A DNA stretch of 46,881 bases from IMG/VR virus record IMGVR_UViG_3300018065_000012; one strand, written 5' to 3'. A program made the position numbers and the translations under genes. The notes beneath the pieces are model-generated. The model ran no database searches, was not told where the DNA came from, and worked only from the letters and a program-made list of their open reading frames with translations. The stretch comes from a virus (Duplodnaviria > Heunggongvirae > Uroviricota > Caudoviricetes). The first letter of the stretch is position 1; each line of letters opens with the position of its first letter. Positions 11,717-41,494 of the stretch are shown here, one piece after another.

Positions 11717-11734
11717 CTTGACAGGAGAATTTCA

Positions 11735-12289: not shown

Positions 12290-12294
12290 AATGT

Positions 12295-12381: not shown

Positions 12382-12388
12382 AACTAAA

Positions 12389-12661: not shown

Positions 12662-12677
12662 CTTCAAAGGGGAAATT

Positions 12678-13127: not shown

Positions 13128-13167
13128 AGCCTTTATCACCCCGCTATTTACGTTATGCAAATCATGG

Positions 13168-17665: not shown

Positions 17666-18796
17666 ATGGGATTGTTTACAGCAGCACATTTCGTTCAAGT
17701 TGCGCCGTGTCGCAGTGGTTTGTACGAAACGACGCGTGAAATTTGCAAAGGACAAATTGAATTTCTGAATTGGGATGCCCGCATGGTAGACGTGACGGGC
17801 ATTTGCACGGCTGGCGGGAAACCGACAAAGAAAAAGGAAGAAAGAGGAGTTCCGCTTGCAAGCGTAAAATGGGCAAAAAAGAAAGCAGATGTTTTCTTTT
17901 TGCACACGGGAATTCCGACGAAAATAGAAGGTTCAAGACCAGCGCTTTACTTTGCTCATGGGATGCCGGAGTATACGTTTTATTCGCAAGTCATGCGCGA
18001 AGTTTCCCCGAGTGAAGCCATTCGGGAACAAAAGCTTAAAAACGCGAATCCGTTCTTTGGCAGTTGGGGTTTAATAGTTCAGATAGCCAAGAAAGACTGG
18101 ATGAAAGGTGCGGTCACCTTATGGCGAAGACATAAGCCATATTGGGAGCCATACTTTGAAAATGTCATTCTTGGAAATCACTTTTGTGATTTGGAACTGT
18201 TTAAGCCGGAAGGAGACAAGGCCGACTATGTTCAGCGGCCAGCAGAAAACGGCGGCTTGAATATTACTTTTGCCGATCATTGGCGTTACACGGCTTTCAA
18301 AGACCCGTTTCAAATATTGCATGGTGCCTATAAGTTTTGCAAGGAGACAAATTCGCGGATTCATTTATATGCCGTGCCCAAGGAAGAAGTAAGGGATATT
18401 CGTCACCCTTGGAATTCGATTATACACGGCGTCAGCGATGAACTGAAAGATACGATTGGTGGTTTTTATGCAGTCCACGCAGATATTGCTTCAGTTCATC
18501 GGGCAGCTGATTTATTGATTACGCCTTCTTGTGATGATACAAGAACAGTGATTGAAGCTTCGGCCTGTGGTTGTCCGGTCCTTGCAAGACATGGGACGGA
18601 AGCGGCAATTTTTCATTGTCGTATGGAAGACCCTGATGAGCTTTACAAGGCATTGAAAGACGTTTACTACAAGTTACAAGACGAGAAAAAGAAAAAGAGT
18701 ATAAAAGAACGATCAAGAGAATTGGTAACGCGCAACAACTTTTCATTGAAAGCTTGTGTGGAGAAGATCGAAACGGGGCTGGCTGAAGCCCTTTAA
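17666..18796 (+). CDS. GT-B fold glycosyltransferase (GT4-like)
   Basis: C-terminal domain with EASACGCPVLA (cf. the EAMACGxPVIA motif of GT1/GT4 glycosyltransferases); 376 aa. Confidence 0.55.
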   Translation: MGLFTAAHFVQVAPCRSGLYETTREICKGQIEFLNWDARMVDVTGICTAGGKPTKKKEERGVPLASVKWAKKKADVFFLHTGIPTKIEGSRPALYFAHGMPEYTFYSQVMREVSPSEAIREQKLKNANPFFGSWGLIVQIAKKDWMKGAVTLWRRHKPYWEPYFENVILGNHFCDLELFKPEGDKADYVQRPAENGGLNITFADHWRYTAFKDPFQILHGAYKFCKETNSRIHLYAVPKEEVRDIRHPWNSIIHGVSDELKDTIGGFYAVHADIASVHRAADLLITPSCDDTRTVIEASACGCPVLARHGTEAAIFHCRMEDPDELYKALKDVYYKLQDEKKKKSIKERSRELVTRNNFSLKACVEKIETGLAEAL

Positions 18797-26536: not shown

Positions 26537-26752
26537 ATGGCACAGTGGTATGCACGGTACAATCAACTCGACAGTGACAAGGTGGAAGAAGCGGGATTTG
26601 TCGAGCAGTCGGAGCGTGATCGTTGGAGTGCTATGTCGGGCATGTCGGCTTGTGGTGGTTTCGATGATGAAATTCCGAACGACTTGATGGACATTGACGG
26701 CAACCCGAACTATTACTACAACACAGGCACGGGCGAAATTGTTCACCTGTAA
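26537..26752 (+). CDS. small acidic hypothetical protein (71 aa)
   Basis: AAAGGAGAG SD then ATG 26537. Confidence 0.5.
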   Translation: MAQWYARYNQLDSDKVEEAGFVEQSERDRWSAMSGMSACGGFDDEIPNDLMDIDGNPNYYYNTGTGEIVHL

Positions 26753-26819: not shown

Positions 26820-28055
26820 ATGCCGCATCTTTTGACTCAAGCCCAACAGAAGGAACAGGTGGCAGACCTTTCCTTGTATGTTGACCCTTCTGCATCGACC
26901 ATGACGGGGACAAATACTTCTGCTGTTACCAAGAAGTTGATTGACAGTGGCGGGGGTTTTTCGTCTTTGAAACCCCGTCAAGTAGTCGTCAATACCACTG
27001 ACCATACTGCTACAATTATTGATTACGTAGAAGATGACACGACACTCGTTTTGAAGAATCACATCTTTACCGCGACTTCAAAAGGCTATTCTATCGACAA
27101 CAATGCAGGAACTTCGGGTGACAAATTTAAGTATCCTCAATCAGCAATGGAAGCAGTACCAGAGACAATTGGCTTCTATCTTCATGTGTATCTTGCCGAT
27201 GGGACGTATAGCGAAATCGGAACAAGTGACATAGTGCTTGGTCGTGCAACAGTTTCAGATGCGTTTCTTTACATCAACAAAAAGATGGCGGCTGGTGGAC
27301 GTATTATAATCGAAGGCAACACGACGACTCCAGCCAACGTGCATTTTAACGGAACAACTCCATCTGCTGCTGCTGGTGTTTTAATTCAGAATGCTCAGAA
27401 AGTAGAAGTTGGAGGGTTGAAGGTATCCAACTGTACCTATGGGATTACTGCTGAAGAAAATTCATCTTTCAGGCTTTATGATGTTATTGCGACTGATTGT
27501 ACTTATGGAATTTCTTTGTTTGATGATTCGGATGGACAAGGTTGGCGGTTGATTTCTGGTCAAAGTGGGACAGGCAACACTTATGGCGTTTATATGGAGC
27601 GTGGATATTTCTACGTTTCCGATGAATCTGTTGGGTCAAGTTCATCCTCTTTGCGCTACAATGGATACAATATCTATCTAAAGACTTCGAGAATCAAAGT
27701 TATTGGAAATGCTACTGCCAATGTAAATCTTTCGGACTCGACAAATCAAGGCGTCTTTGCTACTGAAGGAAGTTCGCTTGAATTTGACCGCATTACAGTC
27801 GATAGTGCAGGGGCAGCGGGAATAGAGATAACATTTGAGAGCAGTGGAAGTGTAGCCAATTCTACTATCTCAAACAATACGGCTCAAGGAATTTTAGCGT
27901 TTAATAATTCCGTGATATACTCAGATACCAATACGGGTGCTGGAAGCACTTATGGTTTATCTGCTCAGAATGGTTCGGTAATCTCTAAGAATAGTACACA
28001 GCCTACGGGTACTGTAAGCAATGAACAAACGGTAAATGGTGGAGCGATTTACTAA
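26820..28055 (+). CDS. Tandem paralog 1 of 3: putative tailspike/depolymerase-like protein with right-handed beta-helix (pectate-lyase-like) repeats
   Basis: Conserved N-terminus (ADLSLYVD...TMTGTNTS...LKP.QVVVNT.D.TAT(I/V)(I/V)DY) followed by repeated (V/I)xNCTxGIxxxEN / NTYGxxxE beta-helix-like motifs; 411 aa. Confidence 0.55.
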   Translation: MPHLLTQAQQKEQVADLSLYVDPSASTMTGTNTSAVTKKLIDSGGGFSSLKPRQVVVNTTDHTATIIDYVEDDTTLVLKNHIFTATSKGYSIDNNAGTSGDKFKYPQSAMEAVPETIGFYLHVYLADGTYSEIGTSDIVLGRATVSDAFLYINKKMAAGGRIIIEGNTTTPANVHFNGTTPSAAAGVLIQNAQKVEVGGLKVSNCTYGITAEENSSFRLYDVIATDCTYGISLFDDSDGQGWRLISGQSGTGNTYGVYMERGYFYVSDESVGSSSSSLRYNGYNIYLKTSRIKVIGNATANVNLSDSTNQGVFATEGSSLEFDRITVDSAGAAGIEITFESSGSVANSTISNNTAQGILAFNNSVIYSDTNTGAGSTYGLSAQNGSVISKNSTQPTGTVSNEQTVNGGAIY

Positions 28056-28075
28056 ATAGGTGCAGGAGTTAGCGA

Positions 28076-29311
28076 ATGCCCCTTTTGACTCAAAACCAGA
28101 AAAAAGCGCAAGTTGCAGACCTGAGTTTGTATGTTGATAATTCTCAGTCCACAATGACAGGAACGAATACATCCGTTGTTTCCAATAAACTGATTGATTC
28201 GAGTGCAGATTTCTCGACGTTGAAACCGCATCAGGTAGTAGTGAACACAAGCGACCATACAGCGACAATCATTGACTATGTTGAAAACGATACTACAATA
28301 GTTCTGAAAGAGAATATTTTTACGGCGACTCCAAAGGGCTATTCCGTTGACAATCACACAGGTGCTTCAAGCGACAAATTCAAATATCCGCAATCGACAA
28401 TGGAATCTGTTCCTGCAAATATTGACTTTTATCTACACGTCTATATTGCTGACGGGACATACAGTGAGATTTCGGCAAGTGATATAGATACTATTCGTGG
28501 TAGCTTTGGAAAGGCTTTTCTTTTCATCAACAAAAGAATGAACGCTGGTGGGCGTATTGTTGTTGAAGGTAATACGACCACTCCCGCCAATGTTCTTTTC
28601 AATGGTACAACTCCATCGGCTGCTGTTGGTGTTCTTGTTCAAGATACTCAGAAGGTTGAAGTGAAAGGATTGAAAGTAACGAATTGTACGCATGGGATTG
28701 GTGTTGTCGAGAATTCTTTCTTGACTGTTTCCGATACCATTACAAACAGCAACAATAATGGGTTTACGGTCTATATGTACTCGTATGTTTTAGCCTCTCG
28801 GATAATTTCTGGCGAAAGTGGCGTTAAGAACACTTATGGTATATTGATGGAGTCGAGTACCTTCAATATTGACGATTCAGGTTCGGGAGCAAACTCGTCG
28901 TCGTTGCGTTACAACACTGACAACATCAATGCGTATTCTTCGACAGTCGCAGTTACAGGCAATGCTACCGCTAACGTTAATTTGTCCGATTCTACAAATT
29001 GGGGCGTCATTTTAAGAACATGCAATACAGCGATTCTTGACCGTGTTATTATTGACAGTGCGAGTTCTGGTGGGGCAATTCAAGTCAATTACGAAGGCAA
29101 TTTGAGTATCAGCAATTCTGTTATCTCAAACAATTCAACGAGAGGAATTACAGCTTATAGTAATTCCTTCGTATACTCAAGCAACAATACTGGTGCGGGT
29201 CAATCGTATGGTTTGGTTGCTCAACATGGTTCGGTTATTTTGAAGAACGGTACACAACCCACAGGAACAACGTCAAATGAACAAACATCAACAGGTGGAG
29301 CGATTTATTAA
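28076..29311 (+). CDS. Tandem paralog 2 of 3 (beta-helix tailspike-like)
   Basis: Same architecture; AGGAG SD. Confidence 0.55.
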   Translation: MPLLTQNQKKAQVADLSLYVDNSQSTMTGTNTSVVSNKLIDSSADFSTLKPHQVVVNTSDHTATIIDYVENDTTIVLKENIFTATPKGYSVDNHTGASSDKFKYPQSTMESVPANIDFYLHVYIADGTYSEISASDIDTIRGSFGKAFLFINKRMNAGGRIVVEGNTTTPANVLFNGTTPSAAVGVLVQDTQKVEVKGLKVTNCTHGIGVVENSFLTVSDTITNSNNNGFTVYMYSYVLASRIISGESGVKNTYGILMESSTFNIDDSGSGANSSSLRYNTDNINAYSSTVAVTGNATANVNLSDSTNWGVILRTCNTAILDRVIIDSASSGGAIQVNYEGNLSISNSVISNNSTRGITAYSNSFVYSSNNTGAGQSYGLVAQHGSVILKNGTQPTGTTSNEQTSTGGAIY

Positions 29312-29330
29312 GAAGGTGTAGGAGTCAGAA

Positions 29331-30569
29331 ATGCAGCATCTTTTAGTCAGAGCGCAACAGAAGGAAAAAGTCACAAGCCTTGACCTTTACGTTGATGCTT
29401 CTCAAACAACGACGACAGGAACCAACACATCTGTTGTTAGTGGAAAGCTGGTTGATTCCACCGCAGATTTTCGGTCTTTGAAACCGCATCAAGTGGTTGT
29501 CAACACAACTGATGGTACGGCTACGGTTGTCGACTATGCGGAAAACAGAACAACGTTGGTTTTGAAGAACCACATTTTCACAGCAACAAGCAAAGCATAT
29601 AGTATTGATGACCATACAGGTTCTTCAAGCGACAAATTCAAGTATCCTCAATCAGCTTTAGAAGCGATGCCTTCAACAATTGGTATTATTTCTCGTGTCT
29701 ATATTGCTGACGGTACATATAATGTGATGGGAACAACTGATGTAATTTGTAATCGTGGCGATGTTACAAAAGCTATCCTTTACGTCAACAAAAGTTTTAC
29801 TGCTGGTGGTCGTATAGACATTATAGGCAATGTATCAACTCCGGCGAATGTTGCTTTTAATGGTACAACTCCTTCTTCGAATGCTGGTGTATTCGTTCAA
29901 GGCAGTCAGAAAATAGAAGTTGAAGGAATCAAGGTAACGAATTGTGTGCATGGGATTACTGCTCAAGAAAAATCATCGGTAGAGGTTTTCGATACGATTA
30001 CAAATAGCAACACTTATGGGTTGTCTGTTTTTTCTCAATCGGTTATGGATTGTTTTAGGGTAATTTCTGGCGAGAGTGGTGCGGGAAATTCTTATGGCGC
30101 ATACCTCGAAGACAGCAATTGTTACATTGCAGATTCAGCTTCAGGAGCAAATTCGTCTTCGCTTCGTTATAATACGACAAACAATATCTATGCGGTGTTT
30201 TCAAGATTGAGGGCGTTGGGCAATGTTACTGCCAATGTGAACTTGTCCAATGCTACGGGATGGGGAGTAATTGCAAGCAGAGGCAGCACGGTAGATTTTG
30301 ACTATGTAACGATTGACAGTTCGGGTGCAGGGGGTTTTCAGGCTACATATGAGAGCAATGCCAGTTTAAGGGATTCCGTTGTTTCAAATAATACCACTTG
30401 GGGCATTTCAGCCGACCTTAATTCGTATGTGAACTCCCGTGATATGAGTGGTGCTGGAAATGATTATGGTTTGGTTTCTGAACTTGGCTCCGTTGTTCAG
30501 AAAGTCGGTACACAGCCCACAGGAGTATCAGGAAACGAATTGACAGCTACGGGCGGTACGATTATCTAA
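29331..30569 (+). CDS. Tandem paralog 3 of 3 (beta-helix tailspike-like)
   Basis: Same architecture; AGGAG SD. Confidence 0.55.
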   Translation: MQHLLVRAQQKEKVTSLDLYVDASQTTTTGTNTSVVSGKLVDSTADFRSLKPHQVVVNTTDGTATVVDYAENRTTLVLKNHIFTATSKAYSIDDHTGSSSDKFKYPQSALEAMPSTIGIISRVYIADGTYNVMGTTDVICNRGDVTKAILYVNKSFTAGGRIDIIGNVSTPANVAFNGTTPSSNAGVFVQGSQKIEVEGIKVTNCVHGITAQEKSSVEVFDTITNSNTYGLSVFSQSVMDCFRVISGESGAGNSYGAYLEDSNCYIADSASGANSSSLRYNTTNNIYAVFSRLRALGNVTANVNLSNATGWGVIASRGSTVDFDYVTIDSSGAGGFQATYESNASLRDSVVSNNTTWGISADLNSYVNSRDMSGAGNDYGLVSELGSVVQKVGTQPTGVSGNELTATGGTII

Positions 30570-30578: not shown

Positions 30579-30872
30579 GTGGGGAAATTTATTCGCAAAA
30601 AAGCAGATGATGTTCTTATTACTCAGTTCCTTGGGACGTTGGATAATGAAGGGACGATGTTTGCCGATGGGTACTTGCAGGAATCAGGTGGTGGCAATAT
30701 GTTGCTTTCGAGTTTTCCAGCCAGTGCGACATGGAATGCAACGCAAGAAATCATTGACATTGGGGATACGAGCTACATTGACAATAATGGCGGTTGGGAT
30801 GATGGGAAATTCATTTACGACGGTTCATGGAGTCTGAATCCCAGTTACGTTCCTGAACCAGAAGATGAATAA
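30579..30872 (+). CDS. hypothetical protein (97 aa, GTG start)
   Basis: AAGGAGAGAG SD immediately upstream; Gly/Asp-rich. Confidence 0.45.
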   Translation: MGKFIRKKADDVLITQFLGTLDNEGTMFADGYLQESGGGNMLLSSFPASATWNATQEIIDIGDTSYIDNNGGWDDGKFIYDGSWSLNPSYVPEPEDE

Positions 30873-31063: not shown

Positions 31064-32521
31064 ATGAGCAGTAGAACACAACAGCGTGAAAAAAAGCGAA
31101 GGGAAAAACGGCAAAGGAAAAAAGAGAAAGATAGAGTTCAACAAACTGTTTCCCCAATGCCTCCAGAACAAAGAATAAGGCGACTGCCATACATTGTTCT
31201 CAAGTTGCTTACAGGCGCTAACATTGCTGAAAACTACAAGCTGAATAAAGATGCAGTTGCTATCATTTGGGACAACGATACTGATCATATCAGTAGTGAA
31301 GATTTCAAGATTGCTCAGAAAATAGCTGACGAACTTTTCAAGGAGCAAGTAAAAGAAAAAAGCTTGATGCCTACTATCAATACGCTTCCAGTTGGAATGA
31401 TGCTCCATAGGCTTGCTACGCAAAAAATCGAGCGTATGGTGCGGAACGAAACAGAAGGCAAAAAGAAAATCCTGTTTATCAAAGACAGAAGCGGATGTGG
31501 CTACTGGAGAATGTTAGTTCCTTCGCGTTACATGGATGCAGAAAACCTGTATATCGACATCACTGAATCGGAATTGGTCTTTGACTTTCTTTTGGAATAC
31601 GATACAATCGTCATTCAGCGTCTTTGCAATTGGCGTGAATATTACATCATTGAAAGACTGAAGCGGCACGGCAAGCGTATTGTTTACGACATTGATGATG
31701 ATATTTTTGACGTGCCTGTGGATAATCCCGCTGCTCGCTACGTGAAAAAAGATCAACACAAAGCGGCTTACGGAATTATGCGGCTTTGTGATGCGGTGAC
31801 GACAACCAGTGAGATTTTGAAAGAGCGTTTGAAGTGCCCTGAAACAACGGTTGTTATTCCAAACGCGATTGATCTTGAAGACGGTTACCCCGCGAAGTAT
31901 CGTCAAAGTGAAGACGGTATCAAACGTATTGTTTGGATGGGCGGTGGAAGTCATAGCAAGGATTGGCTTGAATGTTTTGAAGCTGTGGACAAGATTCTTC
32001 AAGAGCGCGAAGATGTTCGGCTTGTAATTTACGGGGATATACCACGGGCCTTGAGAGCAGCCCTTGCTACTGATGATAAACCATGGTTTACGAAAAGAAT
32101 TGAATTTGTACCGTTTCAAGCAGTTGAGACATATGTGGAATTGACAAAGGAAACAACGGCTGATTGCGCATTGGCTCCGTTATCCAATGAAAGTTTCAAC
32201 GCCGCAAAGAGTAATATCAAATGGTTGGAATACACGGCAATGGGGGTTCCAACTGTAGCCAGCAATGTAAGCCCGTACAAAGAACATATTGACAGCGGCA
32301 GAAACGGTGTCTTGGTTTCAAACACGGATGAATGGTATCGGGCAATTACAGCGTTTCTGGATGACCCAGAACTTTGTGCTAATGTTGTTGATGAAGCAGT
32401 GAAATCAGTTGACGAGCGTTTTGACGTAAAGAAAATTGTGCATGATTGGGAAGAAGTAATTTTGGGCCATGAGATGTATTCAGAAGAAAATCAACCACAG
32501 CTTGTAAACATCGAGACATGA
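31064..32521 (+). CDS. GT-B fold glycosyltransferase with a highly basic N-terminus
   Basis: C-terminal SNIKWLEYTAMGVPTVAS...GRNGVLV resembles the GT1/GT4 donor-binding domain. N-terminal KKRREKRQRKKEK. Confidence 0.55.
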   Translation: MSSRTQQREKKRREKRQRKKEKDRVQQTVSPMPPEQRIRRLPYIVLKLLTGANIAENYKLNKDAVAIIWDNDTDHISSEDFKIAQKIADELFKEQVKEKSLMPTINTLPVGMMLHRLATQKIERMVRNETEGKKKILFIKDRSGCGYWRMLVPSRYMDAENLYIDITESELVFDFLLEYDTIVIQRLCNWREYYIIERLKRHGKRIVYDIDDDIFDVPVDNPAARYVKKDQHKAAYGIMRLCDAVTTTSEILKERLKCPETTVVIPNAIDLEDGYPAKYRQSEDGIKRIVWMGGGSHSKDWLECFEAVDKILQEREDVRLVIYGDIPRALRAALATDDKPWFTKRIEFVPFQAVETYVELTKETTADCALAPLSNESFNAAKSNIKWLEYTAMGVPTVASNVSPYKEHIDSGRNGVLVSNTDEWYRAITAFLDDPELCANVVDEAVKSVDERFDVKKIVHDWEEVILGHEMYSEENQPQLVNIET

Positions 32522-32635: not shown

Positions 32636-33571
32636 ATGACAAAGTATTTGGTTACTGGCGCGGCAGGTTTCATTGGTTCGCACCTTGTCGAAAATCTAAT
32701 CAAGCGTGGAGATAAAGTACGGGGTGTTGACAATTTTGCGACAGGTCGTCTTGAAAACATAAAGTCATTTCTCGATGATTTTGAATTTGTTGAAGGCGAT
32801 TTGAGAGAAGACAAAGTAGTTTCAGAAACAGTCAAAGACGTTGACGTAATCTTTCATGAAGCTGCAATTCCTTCTGTTCCCCGTTCTGTAGCCGACCCTT
32901 GGCTAAGTCACGAATCCAACGTTGATGTCACTTTGAAATTGCTAATGGCTTCGCGGGGGACGGTCAAGCGTTTGATTTATGCAGCGTCGTCTTCGGCCTA
33001 TGGTCAAAATCCACGATTGCCAAAAATTGAGAGTTTTCCAATTGCTCCAATTTCTCCGTATGCTGTAACGAAAGTCGTTGGCGAGTTGTATTGCAAAGTG
33101 TTTACTGAGATTTTTGAAGTTGAGACGATTTCTCTCCGGTATTTCAACGTTTTTGGTCCGCGTCAAAATCCAAAGTCACAGTATGCAGCGGTGATTCCAA
33201 AATTTATCGTTTCCATGTTGAGAGGAGAGCAACCACGTATTTATGGAGACGGTTTGCAATCCCGCGATTTTACATATGTCCAAAACGTCGTTGAAGCAAA
33301 TTTGTTAGCAGCGAAAGCAAAGAAGGCTTCAGGTCAGGTGTATAATATAGCCTGTGGACAACAGATTGATTTACTTACGTTGGTAACGAAAATCAATCAA
33401 CTTCTTGAAACAGAGATTGAACCAATTTTAGACCCGGAAAGAGCAGGCGACGTAAAGCATTCTTTGGCCGCTATTGATAATGCAAGGCGTGGATTGAAGT
33501 TTGAGCCGGTTGTGAGTTTTGATGAAGGTTTGGCAAAAACAGTTGATTGGTTTAAGTGTTGTCCTGAATAG
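32636..33571 (+). CDS. NAD-dependent sugar epimerase/dehydratase (UDP-sugar 4-epimerase-like, extended SDR)
   Basis: YLVTGAAGFIGSHL Rossmann motif, YAVTK (YxxxK), DGLQSRDFTYVQNVV. Confidence 0.75.
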   Translation: MTKYLVTGAAGFIGSHLVENLIKRGDKVRGVDNFATGRLENIKSFLDDFEFVEGDLREDKVVSETVKDVDVIFHEAAIPSVPRSVADPWLSHESNVDVTLKLLMASRGTVKRLIYAASSSAYGQNPRLPKIESFPIAPISPYAVTKVVGELYCKVFTEIFEVETISLRYFNVFGPRQNPKSQYAAVIPKFIVSMLRGEQPRIYGDGLQSRDFTYVQNVVEANLLAAKAKKASGQVYNIACGQQIDLLTLVTKINQLLETEIEPILDPERAGDVKHSLAAIDNARRGLKFEPVVSFDEGLAKTVDWFKCCPE

Positions 33572-33642: not shown

Positions 33643-33847
33643 TTGAACAAAGGTCTTTTTGAAACTGGTGTAAAATGAATTTGGTCATAGCAAGCTCAAA
33701 CCATCCATGTCGATTCCCCGGACGCGGCGATGCCGCCCCAGCACGGGGTTGGTATGCGCCGTATTTCGGGCGTTTCGGGAGCTTGCTATGAGATAGGTAA
33801 CACAAAGTACTCAAGCAAGCCCCGAATGAAAATTCGGGGCTTTTTTA
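33643..33847 (+). ncRNA. candidate structured small RNA (about 200 nt) with its own promoter and terminator
   Basis: 13-bp perfect helix TCATAGCAAGCTC/GAGCTTGCTATGA enclosing GC-rich hairpins (CCCCG...CGGGG, GCGGC-GAT-GCCGC). Ends with a perfect terminator GCCCCGAA-TGAAAA-TTCGGGGC + T6 (33818-33847). A 38-aa ORF is possible but lacks an RBS. Confidence 0.45.
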
Positions 33848-33891: not shown

Positions 33892-33967
33892 GGGGATGTA
33901 GCTCAGTTGGGAGAGCGCTGCGTTCGCAATGCAGAGGTCAGGGGTTCGAATCCCCTCGTCTCCACCA
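33892..33967 (+). tRNA. tRNA-Ala(CGC) with G3-U70
   Basis: Acceptor GGGGATG/CGTCTCC, D GCTC/GAGC, anticodon stem CTGCG/TGCAG loop UUCGCAA, T-arm AGGGG-TTCGAAT-CCCCT, A73, CCA. Confidence 0.75.
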
Positions 33968-33975
33968 AATATAAT

Positions 33976-34052
<77 letters not shown>

Positions 34053-34054
34053 TT

Positions 34055-34130
34055 GGGGGCATAGCTCAGCTGGGAGAGCACAAGCTTTGCAAGCTTGGGG
34101 TCAGGAGTTCGAGTCTCCTTGCCTCCACCA
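34055..34130 (+). tRNA. tRNA-Ala(UGC) with G3-U70
   Basis: Acceptor GGGGGCA/TGCCTCC, D GCTC/GAGC, anticodon stem CAAGC/GCTTG loop UUUGCAA, T-arm AGGAG-TTCGAGT-CTCCT, A73, CCA. Confidence 0.8.
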
Positions 34131-34137
34131 AATACAA

Positions 34138-34271
34138 AAGGCACGCTTCAGTGAAGAGTTACTTCCCTTCGGCGGACGAAGTTCAGGTTCGATTCCTGAC
34201 CCTCCAACCATGATGGAGGGTAGTGTAATGGTAGCACGCGTAAAATATCTCTTTGCGTCTTTTGGTGCCTT
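34138..34271 (+). ncRNA. Bracketed element C1 with a permuted tRNA-like core (acceptor closed by an ACCATGA loop that encodes the discriminator and CCA)
   Basis: Terminal helix AAGGCAC/GTGCCTT; 5' module GCTTCAGTGAAGAGTTACTTC; T-arm TCAGG-TTCGATT-CCTGA; CCCTCCA-ACCATGA-TGGAGGG; D-arm GTGT-AATGGTA-GCAC; 3' module ...CTCTTTGCGTCTTTTGG. The anticodon region is aberrant. Confidence 0.5.
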
Positions 34272-34280
34272 TTATATTTT

Positions 34281-34388
34281 TCAGCACGCTTCAGTGATGA
34301 CATACTTCTTGGTTCAACTCCAACATCGCCCTCTATATGGGCGATGGTGCCACGTGGGTGGCGGTGTTGTTACGTTTTTTGGTGCTGA
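34281..34388 (+). ncRNA. Bracketed element C2 with a permuted tRNA-like core lacking an anticodon arm
   Basis: Terminal helix TCAGCAC/GTGCTGA; T-arm TTGG-TTCAACT-CCAA; acceptor CATCGCC-loop-GGCGATG; D-arm GCCA-CGTGGG-TGGC; 3' module CGTTTTTTGG. Confidence 0.5.
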
Positions 34389-34404
34389 ACTTTTTGAATA
34401 AATT

Positions 34405-34513
34405 CCGGCACGCTTCAGCGTGGGCTTACTTCTTTCTTAAAAAAAGAACCTGCCTGTTCGATTCAGGTGTTGGGTGGACCCGGTACAATTCGCTCATGCG
34501 TCTTTTGGTGCTG
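34405..34513 (+). ncRNA. Bracketed element C3 (anticodon-like arm and T-arm, degenerate acceptor and D parts)
   Basis: Terminal helix CCGGCAC/GTGCTGG (one G-U); TTCTTT-CUUAAAA-AAAGAA arm; T-arm GCCTG-TTCGATT-CAGGT; 3' module GCGTCTTTTGG. Confidence 0.45.
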
Positions 34514-34518
34514 GATTT

Positions 34519-34593
34519 AGCGGTGTTAGTGTATTGGTTGCACATTTGGTTCCCAGCCAGAAGGAGCCAGTTCGAGTCTGGTACACCGCTCCA
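34519..34593 (+). tRNA. tRNA-Gly(CCC)
   Basis: Acceptor GCGGTGT/ACACCGC, D GTGT/GCAC, anticodon stem TTTGG/CCAGA loop UUCCCAG, T-arm GCCAG-TTCGAGT-CTGGT, U73, CCA. Confidence 0.75.
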
Positions 34594-34596
34594 TTT

Positions 34597-34673
34597 GTCA
34601 AGGTAGCTCAGCACGGTAGAGCACTGGCCTGAAGAGCCGGGTGTCGTCGGTTCAAATCCGACCCTTGACGCCA
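34597..34673 (+). tRNA. tRNA-Phe(GAA)
   Basis: Acceptor GTCAAGG/CCTTGAC, D GCTC/GAGC, anticodon stem CTGGC/GCCGG loop CUGAAGA, T-arm GTCGG-TTCAAAT-CCGAC, G73, CCA. Confidence 0.8.
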
Positions 34674-34676
34674 CAC

Positions 34677-34752
34677 GCAGGCGCATGTTCCAAGGCTGGC
34701 GACGGGGATTCCAAATCCTTGTGGGTAGGTTCGATTCCTACCGTCTGCGCCA
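34677..34752 (+). tRNA. tRNA-Trp(CCA), copy 1
   Basis: Acceptor GCAGGCG/CGTCTGC, irregular D-arm, anticodon stem GGGGA/TCCTT loop UUCCAAA, T-arm GTAGG-TTCGATT-CCTAC, G73, CCA. Confidence 0.7.
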
Positions 34753-34755
34753 TAC

Positions 34756-34830
34756 AGGGCCATAGTTTAATTGGTAAAACGGGGGATTCCAAATCCTTTG
34801 ATGCGGGTTCGATTCCTGCTGGCCCTGCCA
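34756..34830 (+). tRNA. tRNA-Trp(CCA), copy 2 (identical anticodon arm, different body, A1-U72)
   Basis: Acceptor AGGGCCA/TGGCCCT, D GTTT/AAAC, anticodon stem GGGGA/TCCTT loop UUCCAAA, T-arm GCGGG-TTCGATT-CCTGC, G73, CCA. Confidence 0.7.
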
Positions 34831-34836
34831 ATCTGT

Positions 34837-34928
34837 GGAGAGTGTTCCCCACGGCAGACTGTAAATCTGTTGCCCATCAGAATAAGTGGGGTGGCGGCGA
34901 ATGGGTTCAATTCCCTCACTCTCCACCA
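34837..34928 (+). tRNA. atypical tRNA-Tyr(GUA)-like, 92 nt: 8-bp acceptor, no canonical D-arm, enlarged variable region (possible pseudo-tRNA)
   Basis: Acceptor GGAGAGTG/CACTCTCC; anticodon arm GCAGA-CUGUAAA-TCTGT; only TT-CCCC-ACG between the acceptor and anticodon stems; GTGGGG in the variable region could pair with CCCC; weak T-stem GGG/CCC; A73, CCA. Confidence 0.4.
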
Positions 34929-34932
34929 TTAA

Positions 34933-35018
34933 GGAGCGGTAGTCTAATTGGTAAGGCAGTGGGCTGTAAACCCACCGGCATTGCGCCATTGGAGGTTCGA
35001 GTCCTCCCCGCTCCACCA
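34933..35018 (+). tRNA. tRNA-Tyr(GUA), class II
   Basis: Acceptor GGAGCGG/CCGCTCC, D GTCT/AGGC, anticodon stem GTGGG/CCCAC loop CUGUAAA, variable arm CGGCATTGCGCCAT, T-arm GGAGG-TTCGAGT-CCTCC, A73, CCA. Confidence 0.8.
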
Positions 35019-35039
35019 TTTTTCTTTTTCAGCAAAAAT

Positions 35040-35061
35040 CTTTTATATTCGGTTGTATAAT
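35040..35061 (+). promoter_or_regulatory. weaker promoter-like site sharing the GGTTGTATAAT -10 element (no good -35)
   Basis: TATAAT 35056-35061 preceded by GGTTG as in the other promoters; the -35 region is CAAAAA. Confidence 0.3.
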
Positions 35062-35083
35062 ATAAGGGTAATTCTCACAGGGG

Positions 35084-35338
35084 ATGAATATGGAAACTCG
35101 GCCAGAAACGGGCAAAATGAAGTTTGGCGACGACTGGTCTGGAATATTCATCCGAGGCGACAATGCTTTCAATTATCATATGCAACTCAAAGAAGTTTTG
35201 AAAGACAATGGCGGTGAATTCGGCATTATTGCGAAACATACAATCCGAGATTTGATTGATCTTTTGGAATCTTGCGAAGAGCATAATGATATCAAACCGC
35301 AAAAATTGAAATCATTCGAGGAATGCCGTTATGAATGA
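35084..35338 (+). CDS. hypothetical protein (84 aa)
   Basis: ORF-track frame; overlaps the dCMP deaminase start by 8 nt. Confidence 0.45.
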   Translation: MNMETRPETGKMKFGDDWSGIFIRGDNAFNYHMQLKEVLKDNGGEFGIIAKHTIRDLIDLLESCEEHNDIKPQKLKSFEECRYE

Positions 35339-35786
35339 TAGACCATCCATTGACCAGACGATGATGGATATTGCAAAAACTTGGTCCTTTCGATCAAGAT
35401 GTTTACGGCGACAAGTGGGTTCAGTAATCGTAAAAGACAAACATGTTTTGACTTCTGGTTATAATGGCCCGCCAAAAGGGTTGCCTCATTGCGATGAATG
35501 TGGTGGTTGTTTGCGGCAAGAAATGGATTTGCCGTCAGGCGAACGTCAAGAACTTTGCAGAGGTTCTCACGCAGAATTGAATGCAATTATTCAAGCGGCA
35601 ATATTTGGGATAAGCGTAAAAGGCGCAACGCTGTATTGCACAAACTTTCCTTGTAACTTTTGTGCCAAAGCAATTGTTCAAGCTGAGATTAAAAAAGTCA
35701 TTTACGAAGATGACTATACGGAAGACGATAACATGGCAAAACAAATGCTTGAACATGTTGGAATTAAAATGGAGAAATTTGAATGA
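35331..35786 (+). CDS. cd: dCMP deaminase (cytidine/deoxycytidylate deaminase family)
   Basis: Zinc-binding HAELNAI and PCNFCAKAI (H[AC]E...PCxxC) motifs; size and context as in T4-type dCMP deaminases. Confidence 0.8.
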   Translation: MNDRPSIDQTMMDIAKTWSFRSRCLRRQVGSVIVKDKHVLTSGYNGPPKGLPHCDECGGCLRQEMDLPSGERQELCRGSHAELNAIIQAAIFGISVKGATLYCTNFPCNFCAKAIVQAEIKKVIYEDDYTEDDNMAKQMLEHVGIKMEKFE

Positions 35787-35962
35787 GCTGGAAAGATTTT
35801 CTTTACGGCGCGGCATCTGTTCTCGACTTGTCTGGTTCAATGGGCAATGCGCAAGTGAATGAAATTTTGCGCAAGTCTGACGCGGAAGCATTGAGGTCAG
35901 ATTGGGAAGCAGTTGGACAAGACATGTGGAAGGCGATTGAACAATCTGAAGATGTCGGGTGA
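35783..35962 (+). CDS. small acidic hypothetical protein (59 aa), translationally coupled to cd
   Basis: ATGA overlap with the cd stop; MSWKDFLYGAASVLDLSGSMGNAQVNEILRKSDAEALRSDWEAVGQDMWKAIEQSEDVG*. The stop lies inside the next tRNA. Confidence 0.45.
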   Translation: MSWKDFLYGAASVLDLSGSMGNAQVNEILRKSDAEALRSDWEAVGQDMWKAIEQSEDVG

Positions 35963-36038
35963 GCGCAGCTGGTGCTGTGAGTGGCCTGCAAAGCCATTTG
36001 GCCTTTGGGTCCAACTGGTTCGATTCCAGCATCCGACT
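35954..36038 (+). tRNA. tRNA-Sec-like (8/4 'allo-tRNA' architecture) tRNA with GCA (Cys) anticodon
   Basis: 8-bp acceptor GTCGGGTG/CATCCGAC; 6-bp D-stem CGCAGC/GCTGTG with 4-nt loop TGGT; 6-bp anticodon stem AGTGGC/GCCATT with loop CUGCAAA; long variable arm TGGCCTTTGGGTCCAA; 4-bp T-stem CTGG/CCAG with loop TTCGATT; U73; no encoded CCA. Confidence 0.5.
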
Positions 36039-36056
36039 CTAATTTGGAGAACATGA

Positions 36057-36311
36057 ATGCCAAAAAGAAGTTTCCCGCTCAAGATCAGTTTTGATCATGA
36101 AATTGATCGAGATACGATGTTTTTTCTTGCTGTAAAGTTTGCGAGAGAATATCCAAAAGCAGCGACACAAATAATTGGAGCATTGGAAGGGGAACGGAAA
36201 TATTGCAAGATCAATTGTCCGTTCCCTTTTGTATGTAGTGAGTTTCCTTGCAAAACGCTTTGTTGTAACGCAGACTGCTGCGACAACGGCCACGCTTATA
36301 GGATGAGCTGA
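36057..36311 (+). CDS. hypothetical Cys-rich protein (84 aa)
   Basis: GGAG SD. The C-terminus has CKINCPFPFVCSEFPCKTLCCNADCCDNGH. Confidence 0.45.
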   Translation: MPKRSFPLKISFDHEIDRDTMFFLAVKFAREYPKAATQIIGALEGERKYCKINCPFPFVCSEFPCKTLCCNADCCDNGHAYRMS

Positions 36312-36685
36312 TGCAATACGAACTTGAAAATGGTTACAAGGTTTGGGTGAACGCGAAGACTTACCGCTCGAAATTGAACAAGCAAGTTTGCATCAAATGT
36401 TTGAAACAGTATTGGCCAGATGCAGATTCCGTTTGGGATGTTCAAGCAGAACTGAAATGGGAAGAAGGCAGGTTGTATATTTGTCCTTGTTCTTCTGTTA
36501 ACGGGCGCGATGAAAACCGCAGAGCAGGCCGATACAACGAAGGCCGGTTGATCGAACACGACCCACCGGAAGCTTGCCCATTCAAAACAGAGCATCTTGT
36601 CAGTTGTAATAAACAAGGTTTCATCTATTATAAAAGCCGCATTGAGGAGTATTGCGAAAAGAATTTCAAAAAGGTGAAAAGGTGA
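36311..36685 (+). CDS. hypothetical protein (124 aa, Cys-containing)
   Basis: TGATG overlap with the upstream gene. Confidence 0.5.
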   Translation: MQYELENGYKVWVNAKTYRSKLNKQVCIKCLKQYWPDADSVWDVQAELKWEEGRLYICPCSSVNGRDENRRAGRYNEGRLIEHDPPEACPFKTEHLVSCNKQGFIYYKSRIEEYCEKNFKKVKR

Positions 36686-36873
36686 AGCTGATTGTAAAAT
36701 TTGTCGTCTTGATTGCTGGAAGTTATCTTTGCTATTTGTCTTGGGCTGAGCCAAAAACAATTATTTGGCTGTATGGAAATTATATCATGCCGGTTTTCTT
36801 TGCATGTATTCCGTTTTATGCAGCATGGTGGTGCTATCAAGACTTAAAGAGCGCCCGTAGCTCAGATGGATAG
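36682..36873 (+). CDS. small membrane protein (about 63 aa, two hydrophobic helices)
   Basis: GTG start overlapping the upstream TGA (GTGA). VKLIVKFVVLIAGSYLCYLSW...IMPVFFACIPFYAAWWCY. The 3' end overlaps tRNA-Arg(CCG). The ORF-track frame starts at 36652. Confidence 0.4.
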   Translation: MKLIVKFVVLIAGSYLCYLSWAEPKTIIWLYGNYIMPVFFACIPFYAAWWCYQDLKSARSSDG

Positions 36874-36927
36874 AGCGTCTGCCTCCGGAGCAGAAGGTCA
36901 CAGGTTCGAGTCCTGTCGGGCGTGCCA
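36851..36927 (+). tRNA. tRNA-Arg(CCG)
   Basis: Acceptor GCGCCCG/CGGGCGT, D GCTC/GAGC, anticodon stem TCTGC/GCAGA loop CUCCGGA, T-arm ACAGG-TTCGAGT-CCTGT, G73, CCA. Confidence 0.8.
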
Positions 36928-36946
36928 AACATACGAGGATGAAAGA

Positions 36947-37204
36947 ATGATAATCATGGAGCATGGAAACGTCGATAAACAAGTACCCAATCAAGGCGCG
37001 TGGGATATTCATGTTGCGGGGCAAGAAAAATATCCACTGGTGGTGATCCTTTGTCCCAAATGTCAAAAAGTATCTTGTCTCCGTAATCATACGATTCATC
37101 GCGACGGGACAGTTTCACCAAGCTTGGTCTGTCCAAGAGATGAATGTAATTTTCATGAAATGATCAAGTTGAAAGACTGGAAAGGGTTGCCTCAAAAATT
37201 GTAG
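36947..37204 (+). CDS. small zinc-ribbon-like protein (85 aa)
   Basis: ATG 36947 after GAGGATGAAAGA (the ORF-track frame from 36866 opens inside the tRNA). CPKCQ...CPRDEC. Confidence 0.45.
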   Translation: MIIMEHGNVDKQVPNQGAWDIHVAGQEKYPLVVILCPKCQKVSCLRNHTIHRDGTVSPSLVCPRDECNFHEMIKLKDWKGLPQKL

Positions 37205-37207
37205 TTT

Positions 37208-37283
37208 GGGCCGGTAACTCAATTGGTAGAGAACCGTTCTTATACAGCGGTAGTCGTTGGTTCGAATCCAACCCGGCCTACCA
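37208..37283 (+). tRNA. tRNA-Ile(UAU)
   Basis: Acceptor GGGCCGG/CCGGCCT, D ACTC/GAGA (3 bp), anticodon stem CCGTT/AGCGG loop CUUAUAC, T-arm GTTGG-TTCGAAT-CCAAC, A73, CCA. Anchored to ORF-track TTG 37223. Confidence 0.75.
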
Positions 37284-37304
37284 AATTCAAGATGGAGTGG
37301 AATT

Positions 37305-37559
37305 ATGAAAGAGGGACGCATAAGCAAAGGTGGCGTGGGAAATCCTCCAACAAGACCAAGACCCAAGCCACCAAAGGGACAAGGAGGCTCTCAAAAGTTG
37401 AAAGAAGTTTTGGAAGCCCTTGAATTCTATGCTGATGAAAGCAATTGGAAAAACGGGACGTCAGTTCATTACGAATGGGCGACGTTTGCTGAGTTGGATG
37501 AAGGCAAACGGGCAAGAAAAGCACTTGAAAAATATCGGGGTGTAGGAAAGTCTGGTTAA
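37305..37559 (+). CDS. hypothetical protein (84 aa)
   Basis: ATG 37305 after GGAGTGG (the ORF-track frame starts at 37257 inside the tRNA). The last 24 nt overlap tRNA-Pro(CGG). Confidence 0.4.
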   Translation: MKEGRISKGGVGNPPTRPRPKPPKGQGGSQKLKEVLEALEFYADESNWKNGTSVHYEWATFAELDEGKRARKALEKYRGVGKSG

Positions 37560-37613
37560 TCCGCTACGTTCGGGACGTAGAGATCGCCGGTTCAAATCCG
37601 GCCACCCCGACCA
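37536..37613 (+). tRNA. tRNA-Pro(CGG)
   Basis: Acceptor CGGGGTG/CACCCCG, D GGAA/ATCC (3 bp), anticodon stem CTACG/CGTAG loop UUCGGGA, T-arm GCCGG-TTCAAAT-CCGGC, A73, CCA. Confidence 0.8.
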
Positions 37614-37629
37614 CTTTAGGAAAAGGCTG

Positions 37630-37764
37630 ATGAACGATCCAAAAGCTTATCAATACACAGGCTCATTGAGTGACAAGTTCTTTATTGTGTTGATCATTTT
37701 AGCAATGATTTCTGTTCCTATTTTTATTATAATTGCGTTTTTGTATTGGGTTCCAAGGAGCTAA
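37630..37764 (+). CDS. small single-TM membrane protein (44 aa)
   Basis: AGGAAAAGG SD then ATG 37630. MNDPKAYQYTGSLSDKFFIVLIILAMISVPIFIIIAFLYWVPRS*. The stop lies 1 nt before the next ATG. Confidence 0.4.
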   Translation: MNDPKAYQYTGSLSDKFFIVLIILAMISVPIFIIIAFLYWVPRS

Positions 37765-37765
37765 A

Positions 37766-38008
37766 ATGCTTTACACGGTTGGCGAGACAGAAAAATACGA
37801 GCAATATATAAAAGAGCAAGGCACGATTTCAAAGGCAGTTGGTGGCTCAGTTTGGAGTTCAAAAGAAGCCGCGCAAAAGTATTTGAAAGAAAGAGGGTTG
37901 CTTGGAAAATTTACTGTTTACGGCATTGACGCCGGTTGGAATGATACTGAATATACAGGTAATCCTTGGCGTGATTTGAAAATTGTTGCAAAAATAATTG
38001 AACTTTGA
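37766..38008 (+). CDS. hypothetical protein (80 aa)
   Basis: ATG 37766 after AAGGAG (the ORF-track frame starts at 37733). Confidence 0.5.
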   Translation: MLYTVGETEKYEQYIKEQGTISKAVGGSVWSSKEAAQKYLKERGLLGKFTVYGIDAGWNDTEYTGNPWRDLKIVAKIIEL

Positions 38009-38082
38009 GCGGGTGTAGCTTAATGGTAAAGCTCCAGCCTTCCAAGCTGATCACGTGGGTTCGATTCCCATCGCCCGCTCCA
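38009..38082 (+). tRNA. tRNA-Gly(UCC)
   Basis: Acceptor GCGGGTG/CGCCCGC, D GCTT/AAGC, anticodon stem CCAGC/GCTGA (C27/A43 mismatch) loop CUUCCAA, T-arm GTGGG-TTCGATT-CCCAT, U73, CCA. Confidence 0.7.
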
Positions 38083-38087
38083 TTTAA

Positions 38088-38161
38088 GCGGCTGTAGCTC
38101 AGTGGTAGAGCGCAAGGTTGCCAATCTTGCTACGAGGGTTCGATTCCCTTCAGCCGCTCCA
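38088..38161 (+). tRNA. tRNA-Gly(GCC)
   Basis: Acceptor GCGGCTG/CAGCCGC, D GCTC/GAGC, anticodon stem CAAGG/TCTTG loop UUGCCAA, T-arm GAGGG-TTCGATT-CCCTT, U73, CCA. Confidence 0.8.
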
Positions 38162-38223
38162 AAATTAAAGATGAAACGGAGATATATGATGAGCCAATCA
38201 CCTTTTGTTCGGGGGATTACATC

Positions 38224-38481
38224 ATGGACGCTCCAAAATGCGAACATCTGTTACCATTTTTGCAAGCTCAAACGCGGCTGATAACAAAACATTTGGGCGA
38301 GCATAAATGGTTCCAAAAAATTGAAAGTGAAAATGAAGCAGTTGGAGATTTCATTGAAAAGTTTGGGTGGGTAATGCGAGAATTCTTTTGTGGTTATTGT
38401 TGTGAACATCGTTATGAATGCGACATTGCCATAGAATACGATTTCTTGCCGCCAGAGAGGAAAAAGCAAAATGACCCTTGA
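38224..38481 (+). CDS. hypothetical protein (85 aa, Cys/His-containing)
   Basis: ORF-track frame; a GGGGGA lies upstream. Confidence 0.4.
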   Translation: MDAPKCEHLLPFLQAQTRLITKHLGEHKWFQKIESENEAVGDFIEKFGWVMREFFCGYCCEHRYECDIAIEYDFLPPERKKQNDP

Positions 38482-39274
38482 AGAAGCACGCAAACTTGTT
38501 TTGAAATCATTCAACAAAAGTGATTTCTATTACAACCATCAATCGCCGCATGGCTATACAAACTTCATTGACGGGATGGCGTGGGTTGGTTTATTGTGCG
38601 GCGCATGTCATCTTGTGGATGACAAAGAGTTGGCGGCATTAGCAGAAAACTACTTGAGAATGCTTTTGAAAGTTGGACCGGATGCAAGAAATTATGCGCC
38701 GATGAAAGTAAGAGACGACTGGATCAAATCTGAAACAGCTCCCGGATTTTGGTACCGTAAAAAGCCGCAGTCCTTCGCGGGGCCAGCGGCTTTATTGTTT
38801 GCTATCAACTGCGGCGCAAAATTGGATAACCCCTTCAACATTGAATCACGTGCCAAGTGGATGCGTTTCTTAAATCCATTCTTTGGTTATCTTGTGCGTT
38901 GGTTTCATTGGTTCAGACAGCATATCAATAGTCAGTTTATCGCTCATTTGATTAACGATTCCAAACCGCCAAGCTCAATGCTTTGGTTGTGCGAGGAAAA
39001 TCCTTTTTTCAGCGCTATTGCTGGAATTGAATGCAGTGTTGAATACCCGAAATCATGGAGCCGGTTTCAAAAGTATGAAACAAAAGACGTGGACGATATT
39101 CAACCGCTGAAAAACCGGAAACCATCAGCTTGGATTTTCAGAAGTTGGCCCAAGGCCGAATACACTGGCGCACTTCCTTACGCGGGCAGTGCTTATACGC
39201 CAACGGCAATGGTTGTTGGTGAATATTTGCAACAGCATTTGAGGAAGAAAAATGCCAAAGTACAAGACAGTTGA
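38471..39274 (+). CDS. hypothetical protein (267 aa, Trp/Phe-rich)
   Basis: Overlaps the upstream gene by 11 nt. No motif recognised. Confidence 0.5.
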   Translation: MTLEEARKLVLKSFNKSDFYYNHQSPHGYTNFIDGMAWVGLLCGACHLVDDKELAALAENYLRMLLKVGPDARNYAPMKVRDDWIKSETAPGFWYRKKPQSFAGPAALLFAINCGAKLDNPFNIESRAKWMRFLNPFFGYLVRWFHWFRQHINSQFIAHLINDSKPPSSMLWLCEENPFFSAIAGIECSVEYPKSWSRFQKYETKDVDDIQPLKNRKPSAWIFRSWPKAEYTGALPYAGSAYTPTAMVVGEYLQQHLRKKNAKVQDS

Positions 39275-39491
39275 GGAACTTGCGCAAGCATTCCAAACAG
39301 GTGAGTTTGGAGCAGATGGTCAAGTTATCAAGATTGAATCGGATGACATAAACGCTTCATTGGTTCGGGTAACTTGCGCAGAGGAAAGTCCTGACGAGTT
39401 TGAAATAATGTTCGAAGGATACGTACAAGGCGGTTATACAAAAGTGAAAAACGAGCTTGGGCCGTCTTTTGGAAGAGCGAAAAAAGAATGA
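39252..39491 (+). CDS. hypothetical acidic protein (79 aa)
   Basis: Overlaps the upstream gene by 23 nt. Confidence 0.45.
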   Translation: MPKYKTVEELAQAFQTGEFGADGQVIKIESDDINASLVRVTCAEESPDEFEIMFEGYVQGGYTKVKNELGPSFGRAKKE

Positions 39492-39494
39492 CGT

Positions 39495-39571
39495 CGGGGT
39501 GTGGCTCAGCTTGGTAGAGCGCTTGACTGGGGGTCAAGAGGTCGCTGGTTCAAATCCAGTCACCCCGACCA
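39495..39571 (+). tRNA. tRNA-Pro(GGG)
   Basis: Acceptor CGGGGTG/CACCCCG, D GCTC/GAGC, anticodon stem CTTGA/TCAAG loop CUGGGGG, T-arm GCTGG-TTCAAAT-CCAGT, A73, CCA. Confidence 0.8.
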
Positions 39572-41002: not shown

Positions 41003-41494
41003 ATGAGAAAGTGGCGCGTAATCCGAGATTTTTACCTTGGAGAGTCTGATCGCATCAAAGCGAGAAATCCGAATGAAGACAATTTCATGCTTTATGAAGG
41101 CACAATTATCTATGAGGCAGAAAATACCGATCGCGTAGTCATCAATGGAAAAGTTTATCATTTCAGAATTGGAACAGTTTTTACTCGCTTTTGCGTTCTT
41201 GAAGAAACACTTCCAGAATCGGTTACAGGCGACACAATGCCGGGTGGGGTGTTACCAGCGGACCTTGTTTGGAAAGGTCCAAGTGATCTGACCACCATCA
41301 TCGCCGGGAAACGATATCAAACCCCAGATAGATTTTTTGAGGAGAGTCTCGTTGTTGCAATTCGTGGTTTGATTGTTGCCGATGAAAATGTCGATGGATT
41401 CACAATCATCGACGACCAAACATTTGAAATGAAAGAAACCTACACAAAACCGAAGGATTGGATCATGTGTGGGTATGTTAAGAAAAGCTCATGA
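41003..41494 (+). CDS. hypothetical protein (163 aa)
   Basis: ORF-track frame; its stop overlaps the start of the collagen-like gene (ATGA). Confidence 0.5.
   Translation: MRKWRVIRDFYLGESDRIKARNPNEDNFMLYEGTIIYEAENTDRVVINGKVYHFRIGTVFTRFCVLEETLPESVTGDTMPGGVLPADLVWKGPSDLTTIIAGKRYQTPDRFFEESLVVAIRGLIVADENVDGFTIIDDQTFEMKETYTKPKDWIMCGYVKKSS

Follow-up and report, generated by a model that had tools for sequence, protein, structure and literature searches.

The window analysed here, a stretch of 46,881 nucleotides from an uncultured tailed phage (Caudoviricetes; IMG/VR virus record IMGVR_UViG_3300018065_000012), carries on its plus strand three adjacent paralogous genes (paralogs 1 to 3) that probably encode virion-borne receptor-binding fibre or spike proteins, generated by old tandem duplication and retained under purifying selection. 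The source is a huge phage with a contig of ~338 kb, the longest of the paralog-bearing contigs reaching 338 kb. Each of the three proteins combines a short N-terminal peptide of ~24 amino acids (aa), a module of ~70 aa predicted to be a beta-barrel with an accessory role, and an enlarged version of a predicted right-handed beta-helix.

The three genes are tandem plus-strand open reading frames (ORFs) lying exactly where a preliminary description of the sequence had placed them (Table 1), and are separated by spacers of 20 and 19 nt, each with a GGAG-type ribosome-binding site. Their products are real paralogs with 57-63% identity; the length of 411 aa earlier ascribed to all of them holds for proteins 1 and 2, but protein 3 has 412 residues. 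An end-to-end alignment requires just three single-residue gaps, and the HMMER E-values obtained when the paralogs are compared with each other (1e-138 to 1e-146) are far past chance. In the DNA, a unit of 1253-1258 bp occurs three times as a direct repeat, and the genes themselves are 63-66% identical in nucleotide sequence. Synonymous sites are saturated (proportion of synonymous differences, pS, 0.62-0.68), and the ratio of nonsynonymous to synonymous divergence (dN/dS) is 0.15-0.24 overall, with 0.15 for paralog 2 versus paralog 1 and values of at most ~0.4 in every segment. The genes are therefore old tandem duplicates, all three of which are still kept under purifying selection. The same three genes are present on contigs of several independent samples, and their origin as pseudogenes or assembly artefacts was rejected in light of the intact ORFs, the purifying selection and this recurrence of the triplet. 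Certain short-read assemblies of other samples break within the array, one (L003) ending 345 nt into paralog 2 and three (L005, L006 and L007) ~770-800 nt into paralog 3, which suggests either repeat-induced breaks or strain-level variation at the locus.

Divergence is unevenly distributed along the proteins. In windows of 30 residues the pairwise identity is ~47-83% over residues 1-210 (mostly 60-83%, with a low of 47% at 121-150), falls to 23-63% over residues 211-360 and climbs back to 52-78% at the C-terminus; by segment, it is 59-76% in the first 100 residues, 56-73% over residues 100-210, 40-52% over ~210-350 and 49-69% at the C-terminus. The most divergent segment (~211-345) overlaps an insertion of ~110 aa, made up of extra rungs, relative to the short module of the wider family discussed below (hhalign and MAFFT alignments). 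Conservation is hence best described as a gradient along one homologous protein, each gene being a full-length diverged copy. The preliminary description had envisaged a shared N-terminal module of ~110 aa followed by three different specificity domains. A separable module does exist, at residues ~25-95, but homology extends over the full length, no unrelated domains follow the module, and the supposed specificity domains are diverged copies of a single domain. An internal duplication within the helix (SG.GNTYG... versus TGAGSTYG...) was also considered and rejected, the support for it being weak (E 0.006 for a single comparison).

That the C-terminal domain adopts a beta-helix fold, as had been proposed, is upheld by two lines of prediction. 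The Pfam Beta_helix model (PF13229) matches paralogs 1, 2 and 3 with 43.1, 27.1 and 26.9 bits respectively, all above the gathering score of 25.9, and the NosD model of Pfam comes near its threshold. An AlphaFold2 (AF2) model of paralog 1 derived from 35 sequences is confident over residues 103-411 (predicted local distance difference test, pLDDT, mostly 80-97 by block) and displays the regular short-strand pattern of a beta-helix, with three-stranded rungs stacked upon each other in three dimensions. The repeated motifs that had first drawn attention to the fold (NCT.GI..EN, GNTYG and NS.IYSDTNTG) are likewise present. The domain is predicted to be a right-handed beta-helix with about twelve rungs. 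Its N-cap starts at about residue 93, as judged by homology to other proteins, and in paralog 1 is characterized by the motif D..G..DKFKYPQSAMEAVP...VY.ADGTY, after which the rungs begin; the conserved C-terminal cap (NTGAG.TYGL...GSVI.K..TQPTGT..NE.T..GGAI) reaches residues 410-411 of 411. The list of structures resembling the AF2 fold includes the Vag8 passenger (29.2), the receptor-binding protein gp15 of phage Andhra (27.2), the AlgE4 mannuronan C5-epimerase (26.5), the tailspike of Acinetobacter phage AS12 (25.6), the CBA120 tailspike TSP2 (25.1) and GH110 galactosidases (about 25), with many further tailspikes, depolymerases and pectin-active enzymes lower down. The AlgE4 A-module, the Vag8 passenger and the GH110 galactosidases are non-viral, share 11-13% identity with the window proteins and resemble them in fold only, their Pfam families not matching the window proteins.

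The affinities of this domain emerged from a HMMER scan of 1.84 billion representative sequences, which yielded 462 matches at E <= 1e-3 in two separate classes, the first aligning to residues ~300-410 of the paralogs and the second to residues ~25-98. In the first class the matches to the beta-helix hidden Markov model (HMM) stop no more than three residues from the C-terminus in 100 of 118 proteins, a set that includes the paralogs and P0004, their one further full-length relative. A family alignment was constructed from 102 distant relatives, and its near-invariant positions are confined to the N-cap (YYV..G.D.NDG...F.TIQ.AI..IP...I.I..GTY.E...GNTTTP.NV) and the C-terminal cap (SN..GI...S.V.S..N.G.GN.YGL...GS.I.K.GTQP.GT..E...GG.I), the groove not being conserved. 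The family-invariant residues include K390, Q394 and E402 besides the cap. An hhalign comparison of the three paralogs with these relatives recovers the relationship over residues 93-410 (99.8%, E 8.9e-29) and locates the ~110-residue insertion of the window proteins at about 205-310. As many as 68 of the 102 relatives match phrog_4577, annotated as 'tail protein', and many match other tail-fibre PHROGs; at their N-termini they bear Phage_tail_fib (tail collar), Mtd_N, BppU_N, collagen or fibre-repeat domains. The sole match in a cultured phage (tblastn against phages) is to 53 residues at the extreme C-terminus of the tail-fibre protein of Clostridium phage phiCT453B, whose gene comes immediately after baseplate J-like genes. 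Given the hhalign homology, the tail-fibre nature of the relatives and the position of the phiCT453B gene, the window beta-helix is an enlarged form of a module that is common at the distal end of tail fibres. It shares with the phrog_4577-type module, as seen in the phiCT453B tail fibre, the N-cap D.N.G...F.T.Q.A...P...I...ADGTY.E...GNTTTP.NV and a near-invariant cap at the very end of the protein, but differs in the ~110 mid-helix residues of additional rungs and in possessing the beta-barrel module in the place that a fibre shaft or collar domain occupies in the relatives. Searches against PDB sequences found no solved structure of the short C-terminal module; the matches obtained were weak and concerned either the generic N-cap or Andhra gp15.

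The second class of matches defines the N-terminal module, with the consensus GTNTS..KLiDS.A.F...GD.V.NTTD.T..V..VdS.T.L.L...IFtA.gk.Y.I, whose extent of ~70 aa is set by homology to other proteins. Whereas a first AF2 run left residues 1-102 with a pLDDT < 50, a second run that included homologues of the module modelled residues ~25-95, which are predicted to form a beta-barrel. The carriers collected from outside the window (proteins P0036-P0182) contain 1-7 copies in N-terminal, internal or C-terminal positions. Thus, the tail sheath protein P0038 has six tandem copies ahead of its sheath domains (Phage_sheath_1, phrog_23), and in a family of 155-163-aa proteins the module accompanies a C-terminal half corresponding to the RcGTA-type head-spike base protein (NF048002). 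Other carriers comprise a baseplate protein, a minor head protein and DUF285 proteins, as well as P0039 (774 aa), which has two copies and, judging by its sequence, seems to be a further beta-helix protein whose helix holds one of them as an insertion. A weak match also links the module to the N-terminal part of phrog_1980, a tail-fibre family. It has no model in Pfam or NCBIfam, is absent from the PDB sequence set and, among the window proteins, is restricted to the three paralogs. Since it is scattered over sheath, head-spike base, baseplate and fibre proteins at varied positions, it has the appearance of a surface-exposed accessory domain in general use on virions rather than the dedicated particle anchor for which it had been taken, and its role would be comparable to that of the Ig-like domains seen in numerous virion proteins. 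The same distribution indicates that the paralogs, too, belong to the virion surface. The first 24 residues are conserved in the paralogs, in P0004 and in an 87-aa fragment (P0036). By analogy with Andhra gp15, which attaches via a 36-38-residue N-terminal loop (PMC9710869), this N-terminal peptide may serve for attachment.

Full-length relatives are exceedingly scarce: a set of 5.8 billion clustered proteins yielded the three paralogs themselves and P0004, a protein of 414 aa that is 52-57% identical to the paralogs and roughly equidistant from all three. A pattern scan of IMG/VR recovered no relatives and a scan of JGI metagenomes nothing beyond another copy of P0004, so the full-length family consists of these four proteins; a blastn search of GenBank phages with the paralog region was also without a match. 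Of the paralogs, 1 and 2 resemble each other most. The gene for P0004 lies on L001, a contig of 32 kb whose cassette is ordered as in the window (proteins of 324, 886, 102, 373 and 933 aa) and which possesses one beta-helix gene and a single 260-aa homologue of the six tandem paralogs found directly upstream of the beta-helix genes in the window. The window phage thus differs from this relative by three copies versus one of the beta-helix gene and six versus one of the upstream family. Tandem arrays of diverged receptor-binding proteins are the means by which large phages widen or switch their host range, and because the copy numbers of both fibre-like families differ between related phages the locus fits what is expected of a host-range locus. 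The array of six is a second, larger lineage-specific fibre-like expansion beside the beta-helix triplet, and the surroundings as a whole have the look of a region devoted to fibres and host recognition in a huge phage. The L001 contig also encodes an unrelated-looking protein of 343 aa.

Taken together, these features are consistent with a scheme in which the paralog proteins would assemble as trimers on the particle, to which the conserved N-terminal third would attach them. The fusion of relatives to trimeric shafts of the collagen and tail-collar types lends indirect support to the trimeric state. The ligand-binding face would be formed by the divergent rungs at the centre (residues ~211-345), in contact with glycans on the host surface, and the three versions may differ in their glycan ligand, resulting in a multivalent particle or a multivalent phage population. 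Because the N-terminal region is nearly common to all three, the proteins may compete for the same docking site, with their co-assembly as a less likely alternative. Several points weigh against this scheme. The three paralogs gave nothing better than E 0.24 against the PHROGs, not reaching the phrog_4577 HMM directly, and had no family match in NCBIfam, so that it is remote homology that links them to tail fibres. No anchor domain of a known type was detected in them; virion incorporation, trimerisation and glycan binding are themselves inferred; and the adjoining genes for sugar metabolism permit a non-structural interpretation.

Phages are well known to carry adjacent genes for beta-helix receptor-binding proteins whose N-terminal parts are conserved, CBA120 and the jumbo Klebsiella phages being examples. 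The Agtrevirus AV101 likewise encodes several such adjacent genes (PMC10791037). When compared with these multi-tailspike phages (Kuttervirus CBA120 with TSP1-4, AV101 and the Klebsiella jumbo phages with many depolymerases), the window proteins are short (411 aa), lack the known anchor and branching domains of those tailspikes and have a different N-terminal module. Furthermore, they are full-length paralogs of each other, in contrast to the mosaic nature of the known tailspikes, and any enzyme activity of theirs is putative. Andhra gp15 (PDB 8egr), at 609 aa, also differs in having a coiled-coil stem and 19 layers, in lacking the beta-barrel module and in sharing 16% identity with the window protein.

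Of the alternatives to receptor-binding fibres, one that is possible though doubtful is that the proteins are active tailspike depolymerases (lyases or hydrolases), each directed against a different capsule, O-antigen or exopolysaccharide and sharing an N-terminal particle-binding domain. The earlier label 'pectate-lyase-like' is apt for the fold but not for the family, there being no match of the three paralogs at E <= 1 to any pectate lyase (Pec_lyase), pectinesterase or glycoside hydrolase model of Pfam. Membership in the pectate lyases or pectinesterases (PL1, PL3, PL9 and CE8) was rejected with the resemblance limited to the generic first-rung motif, and matches of the distant relatives to the Pectinesterase profile are confined to its first third. 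Matches to catalytic family models in Pfam, PHROG and NCBIfam were also wanting for the paralog proteins. As there is no conserved catalytic signature and the wider family keeps its caps rather than its groove, we lean slightly towards glycan binding, with or without weak enzymatic activity, over cleavage.

A second proposal emphasizes the sugar-related genes of the neighborhood: the beta-barrel would be a new and widespread glycan-binding or glycosylated decoration domain of virions, and the paralogs glycosylated fibres in a sugar-coated apparatus for multivalent adhesion, distinct from classical tailspikes. N-x-S/T sequons number 13, 15 and 14 in paralogs 1, 2 and 3 versus ~6.5, 9.8 and 7.2 expected by shuffling (z 2-3), a real but modest excess of about twofold that is absent from P0004 and the distant relatives. 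To take this excess as a sign of glycosylation by the products of neighbouring genes would be speculative, and we consider the proposal as a whole unlikely. Somewhat less probable still is that the proteins are decoration fibres on the capsid or along the tail, akin to head fibres or spikes, that mediate weak and reversible adhesion to glycans. Against this, the relatives of the beta-helix bear tail-fibre, tail-collar, BppU or baseplate N-termini, and in the cultured phage the module resides in a tail-fibre gene beside baseplate genes. The weakest of the rivals, with very little probability, is that the paralogs are non-structural, soluble or secreted polysaccharide-modifying enzymes (an epimerase or lyase like AlgE4) that would cooperate with the glycosyltransferases and nucleotide-sugar epimerases encoded nearby in remodelling the envelope of the infected cell or a glycan product, because the great majority of their relatives in sequence are modules at the C-terminal end of tail-fibre proteins; it is further countered by the N-terminal module being a virion-protein domain, by the fibre-like structural genes immediately upstream and by the lack of a signal peptide evident by eye in the N-terminal sequence.

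If the paralogs are indeed receptor-binding fibres, the presence of three beta-helix and six fibre-like genes against one of each in the relative would point to host-range expansion in an uncultured phage of ~338 kb, and the paralog locus marks the genes to be targeted in any future study of its host range. Beta-helix proteins of this type are placed by phages at the tips of their tail fibres, where they recognise sugars of the host surface. As a means of widening host recognition the locus is thus of a familiar type and not a new kind of system, and does not overturn existing ideas; nor would an uncatalogued N-terminal module or a structurally unsolved family of C-terminal caps surprise a specialist. 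What is unusual is the small architecture, in which a beta-barrel module is combined with an enlarged short tail-fibre beta-helix, alongside a six-fold expanded fibre-like family. Two results are of use in annotation, namely the compact and widespread C-terminal beta-helix module of tail fibres with its near-invariant terminal cap, and the mobile beta-barrel module of virion surface proteins that lies outside current domain libraries.

Table 1. Positions of the three paralogs, their domains and adjacent features in the 46,881-nucleotide window
Feature	Position	Strand	Remarks
Six tandem paralogs, ~250-255 aa	21886..26499	+	Directly upstream; 36-74% identity; weak Mtd_2nd and tail-fibre PHROG matches
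71-aa ORF	26537-26752		Not conserved in related contig
Paralog 1	26820..28055	+	411 aa; N-terminal peptide, beta-barrel module (predicted) and beta-helix (predicted)
Beta-barrel module (predicted), paralog 1	26892..27104	+	Residues ~25-95
Beta-helix domain (predicted), paralog 1	27096..28052	+	Residues ~93-411; hhalign and AF2
Most divergent paralog segment	27450..27854	+	Residues ~211-345 of paralog 1; same columns in paralogs 2 and 3
Paralog 2	28076..29311	+	411 aa; 63% identity to paralog 1
Beta-barrel module (predicted), paralog 2	~28145-28357	+	Equivalent stretch
Paralog 3	29331..30569	+	412 aa; 57% identity to paralog 1, 58% to paralog 2
Beta-barrel module (predicted), paralog 3	29403-29615	+	Equivalent stretch
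97-aa ORF	30579..30872	+	Directly after paralog 3; no family match
GT1-family glycosyltransferase	31064-32521	+	Pfam and PHROG matches
NAD-dependent nucleotide-sugar epimerase	32636-33571	+	Pfam and PHROG matches
Strong terminator-like hairpin	33817-33842		After epimerase gene; terminator scan

The plus-strand block to which the paralogs belong begins with genes for proteins of 324, 957, 102, 376 and 960 aa, in that order, followed by the six ~250-255-aa paralogs, and ends with the 71-aa ORF, the three beta-helix genes, ORFs of 97 and 61 aa, the GT1 glycosyltransferase and the epimerase. The 957-aa protein matches coiled-coil and tail-needle PHROGs, the 960-aa protein matches virion-protein PHROGs, and the 376-aa protein has weak glycosyltransferase matches. 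The Mtd-type matches of the upstream array had suggested a diversity-generating retroelement, but they are limited to the second domain of Mtd, and no reverse transcriptase was detected among the window ORFs scanned against family libraries, a set short of every ORF. Inspection by eye showed no anchor peptide that the six upstream proteins have in common with the beta-helix paralogs. The 97-aa ORF has a 69% identical counterpart of 95 aa, placed directly after the lone beta-helix gene, in L001 (11258-11545) and in L008, and its product is a candidate partner or assembly factor.

This fibre block is bracketed by two arrays of tRNA genes, 47 in total, at 2585-13244 and 33892-39571 (plus strand). 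The tRNAs of the window cover almost all amino acids and include a tRNA-Ile with the anticodon TAT; the one at 35953-36038 is selenocysteine-like according to Rfam and Cys (GCA) according to ARAGORN. Interspersed in the arrays are small ORFs, an HNH endonuclease (3060-3632), a glycosyltransferase (5121-5894) and an epimerase (9325-10317). Together with the genes at 17666-18796, 31064-32521 and 32636-33571, the glycosyltransferase and epimerase of the arrays bring the window to three glycosyltransferase-like and two nucleotide-sugar epimerase genes, which are dispersed within and around the structural cassette. Toward its end, at 41482-46881 (plus strand), there is a collagen-like open frame of at least 1800 codons that runs off the window and consists of GXY triplets from about codon 215 onward (GNQGNQGDVGIDGVQG...). 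This repeat accounts for a rise in GC content to 0.53 and a strong purine skew at 42-46 kb, and the long minus-strand ORFs listed there were rejected as artefacts of it. The window opens with a caspase-like Peptidase_C14 protein (93-1103, plus strand). Just upstream of it on the same contig (L009) lie NrdD, the anaerobic ribonucleotide reductase, and a radical-SAM activase, which hint at an anaerobic host; anaerobic ribonucleotide reductase and the other upstream genes are typical of very large phages.

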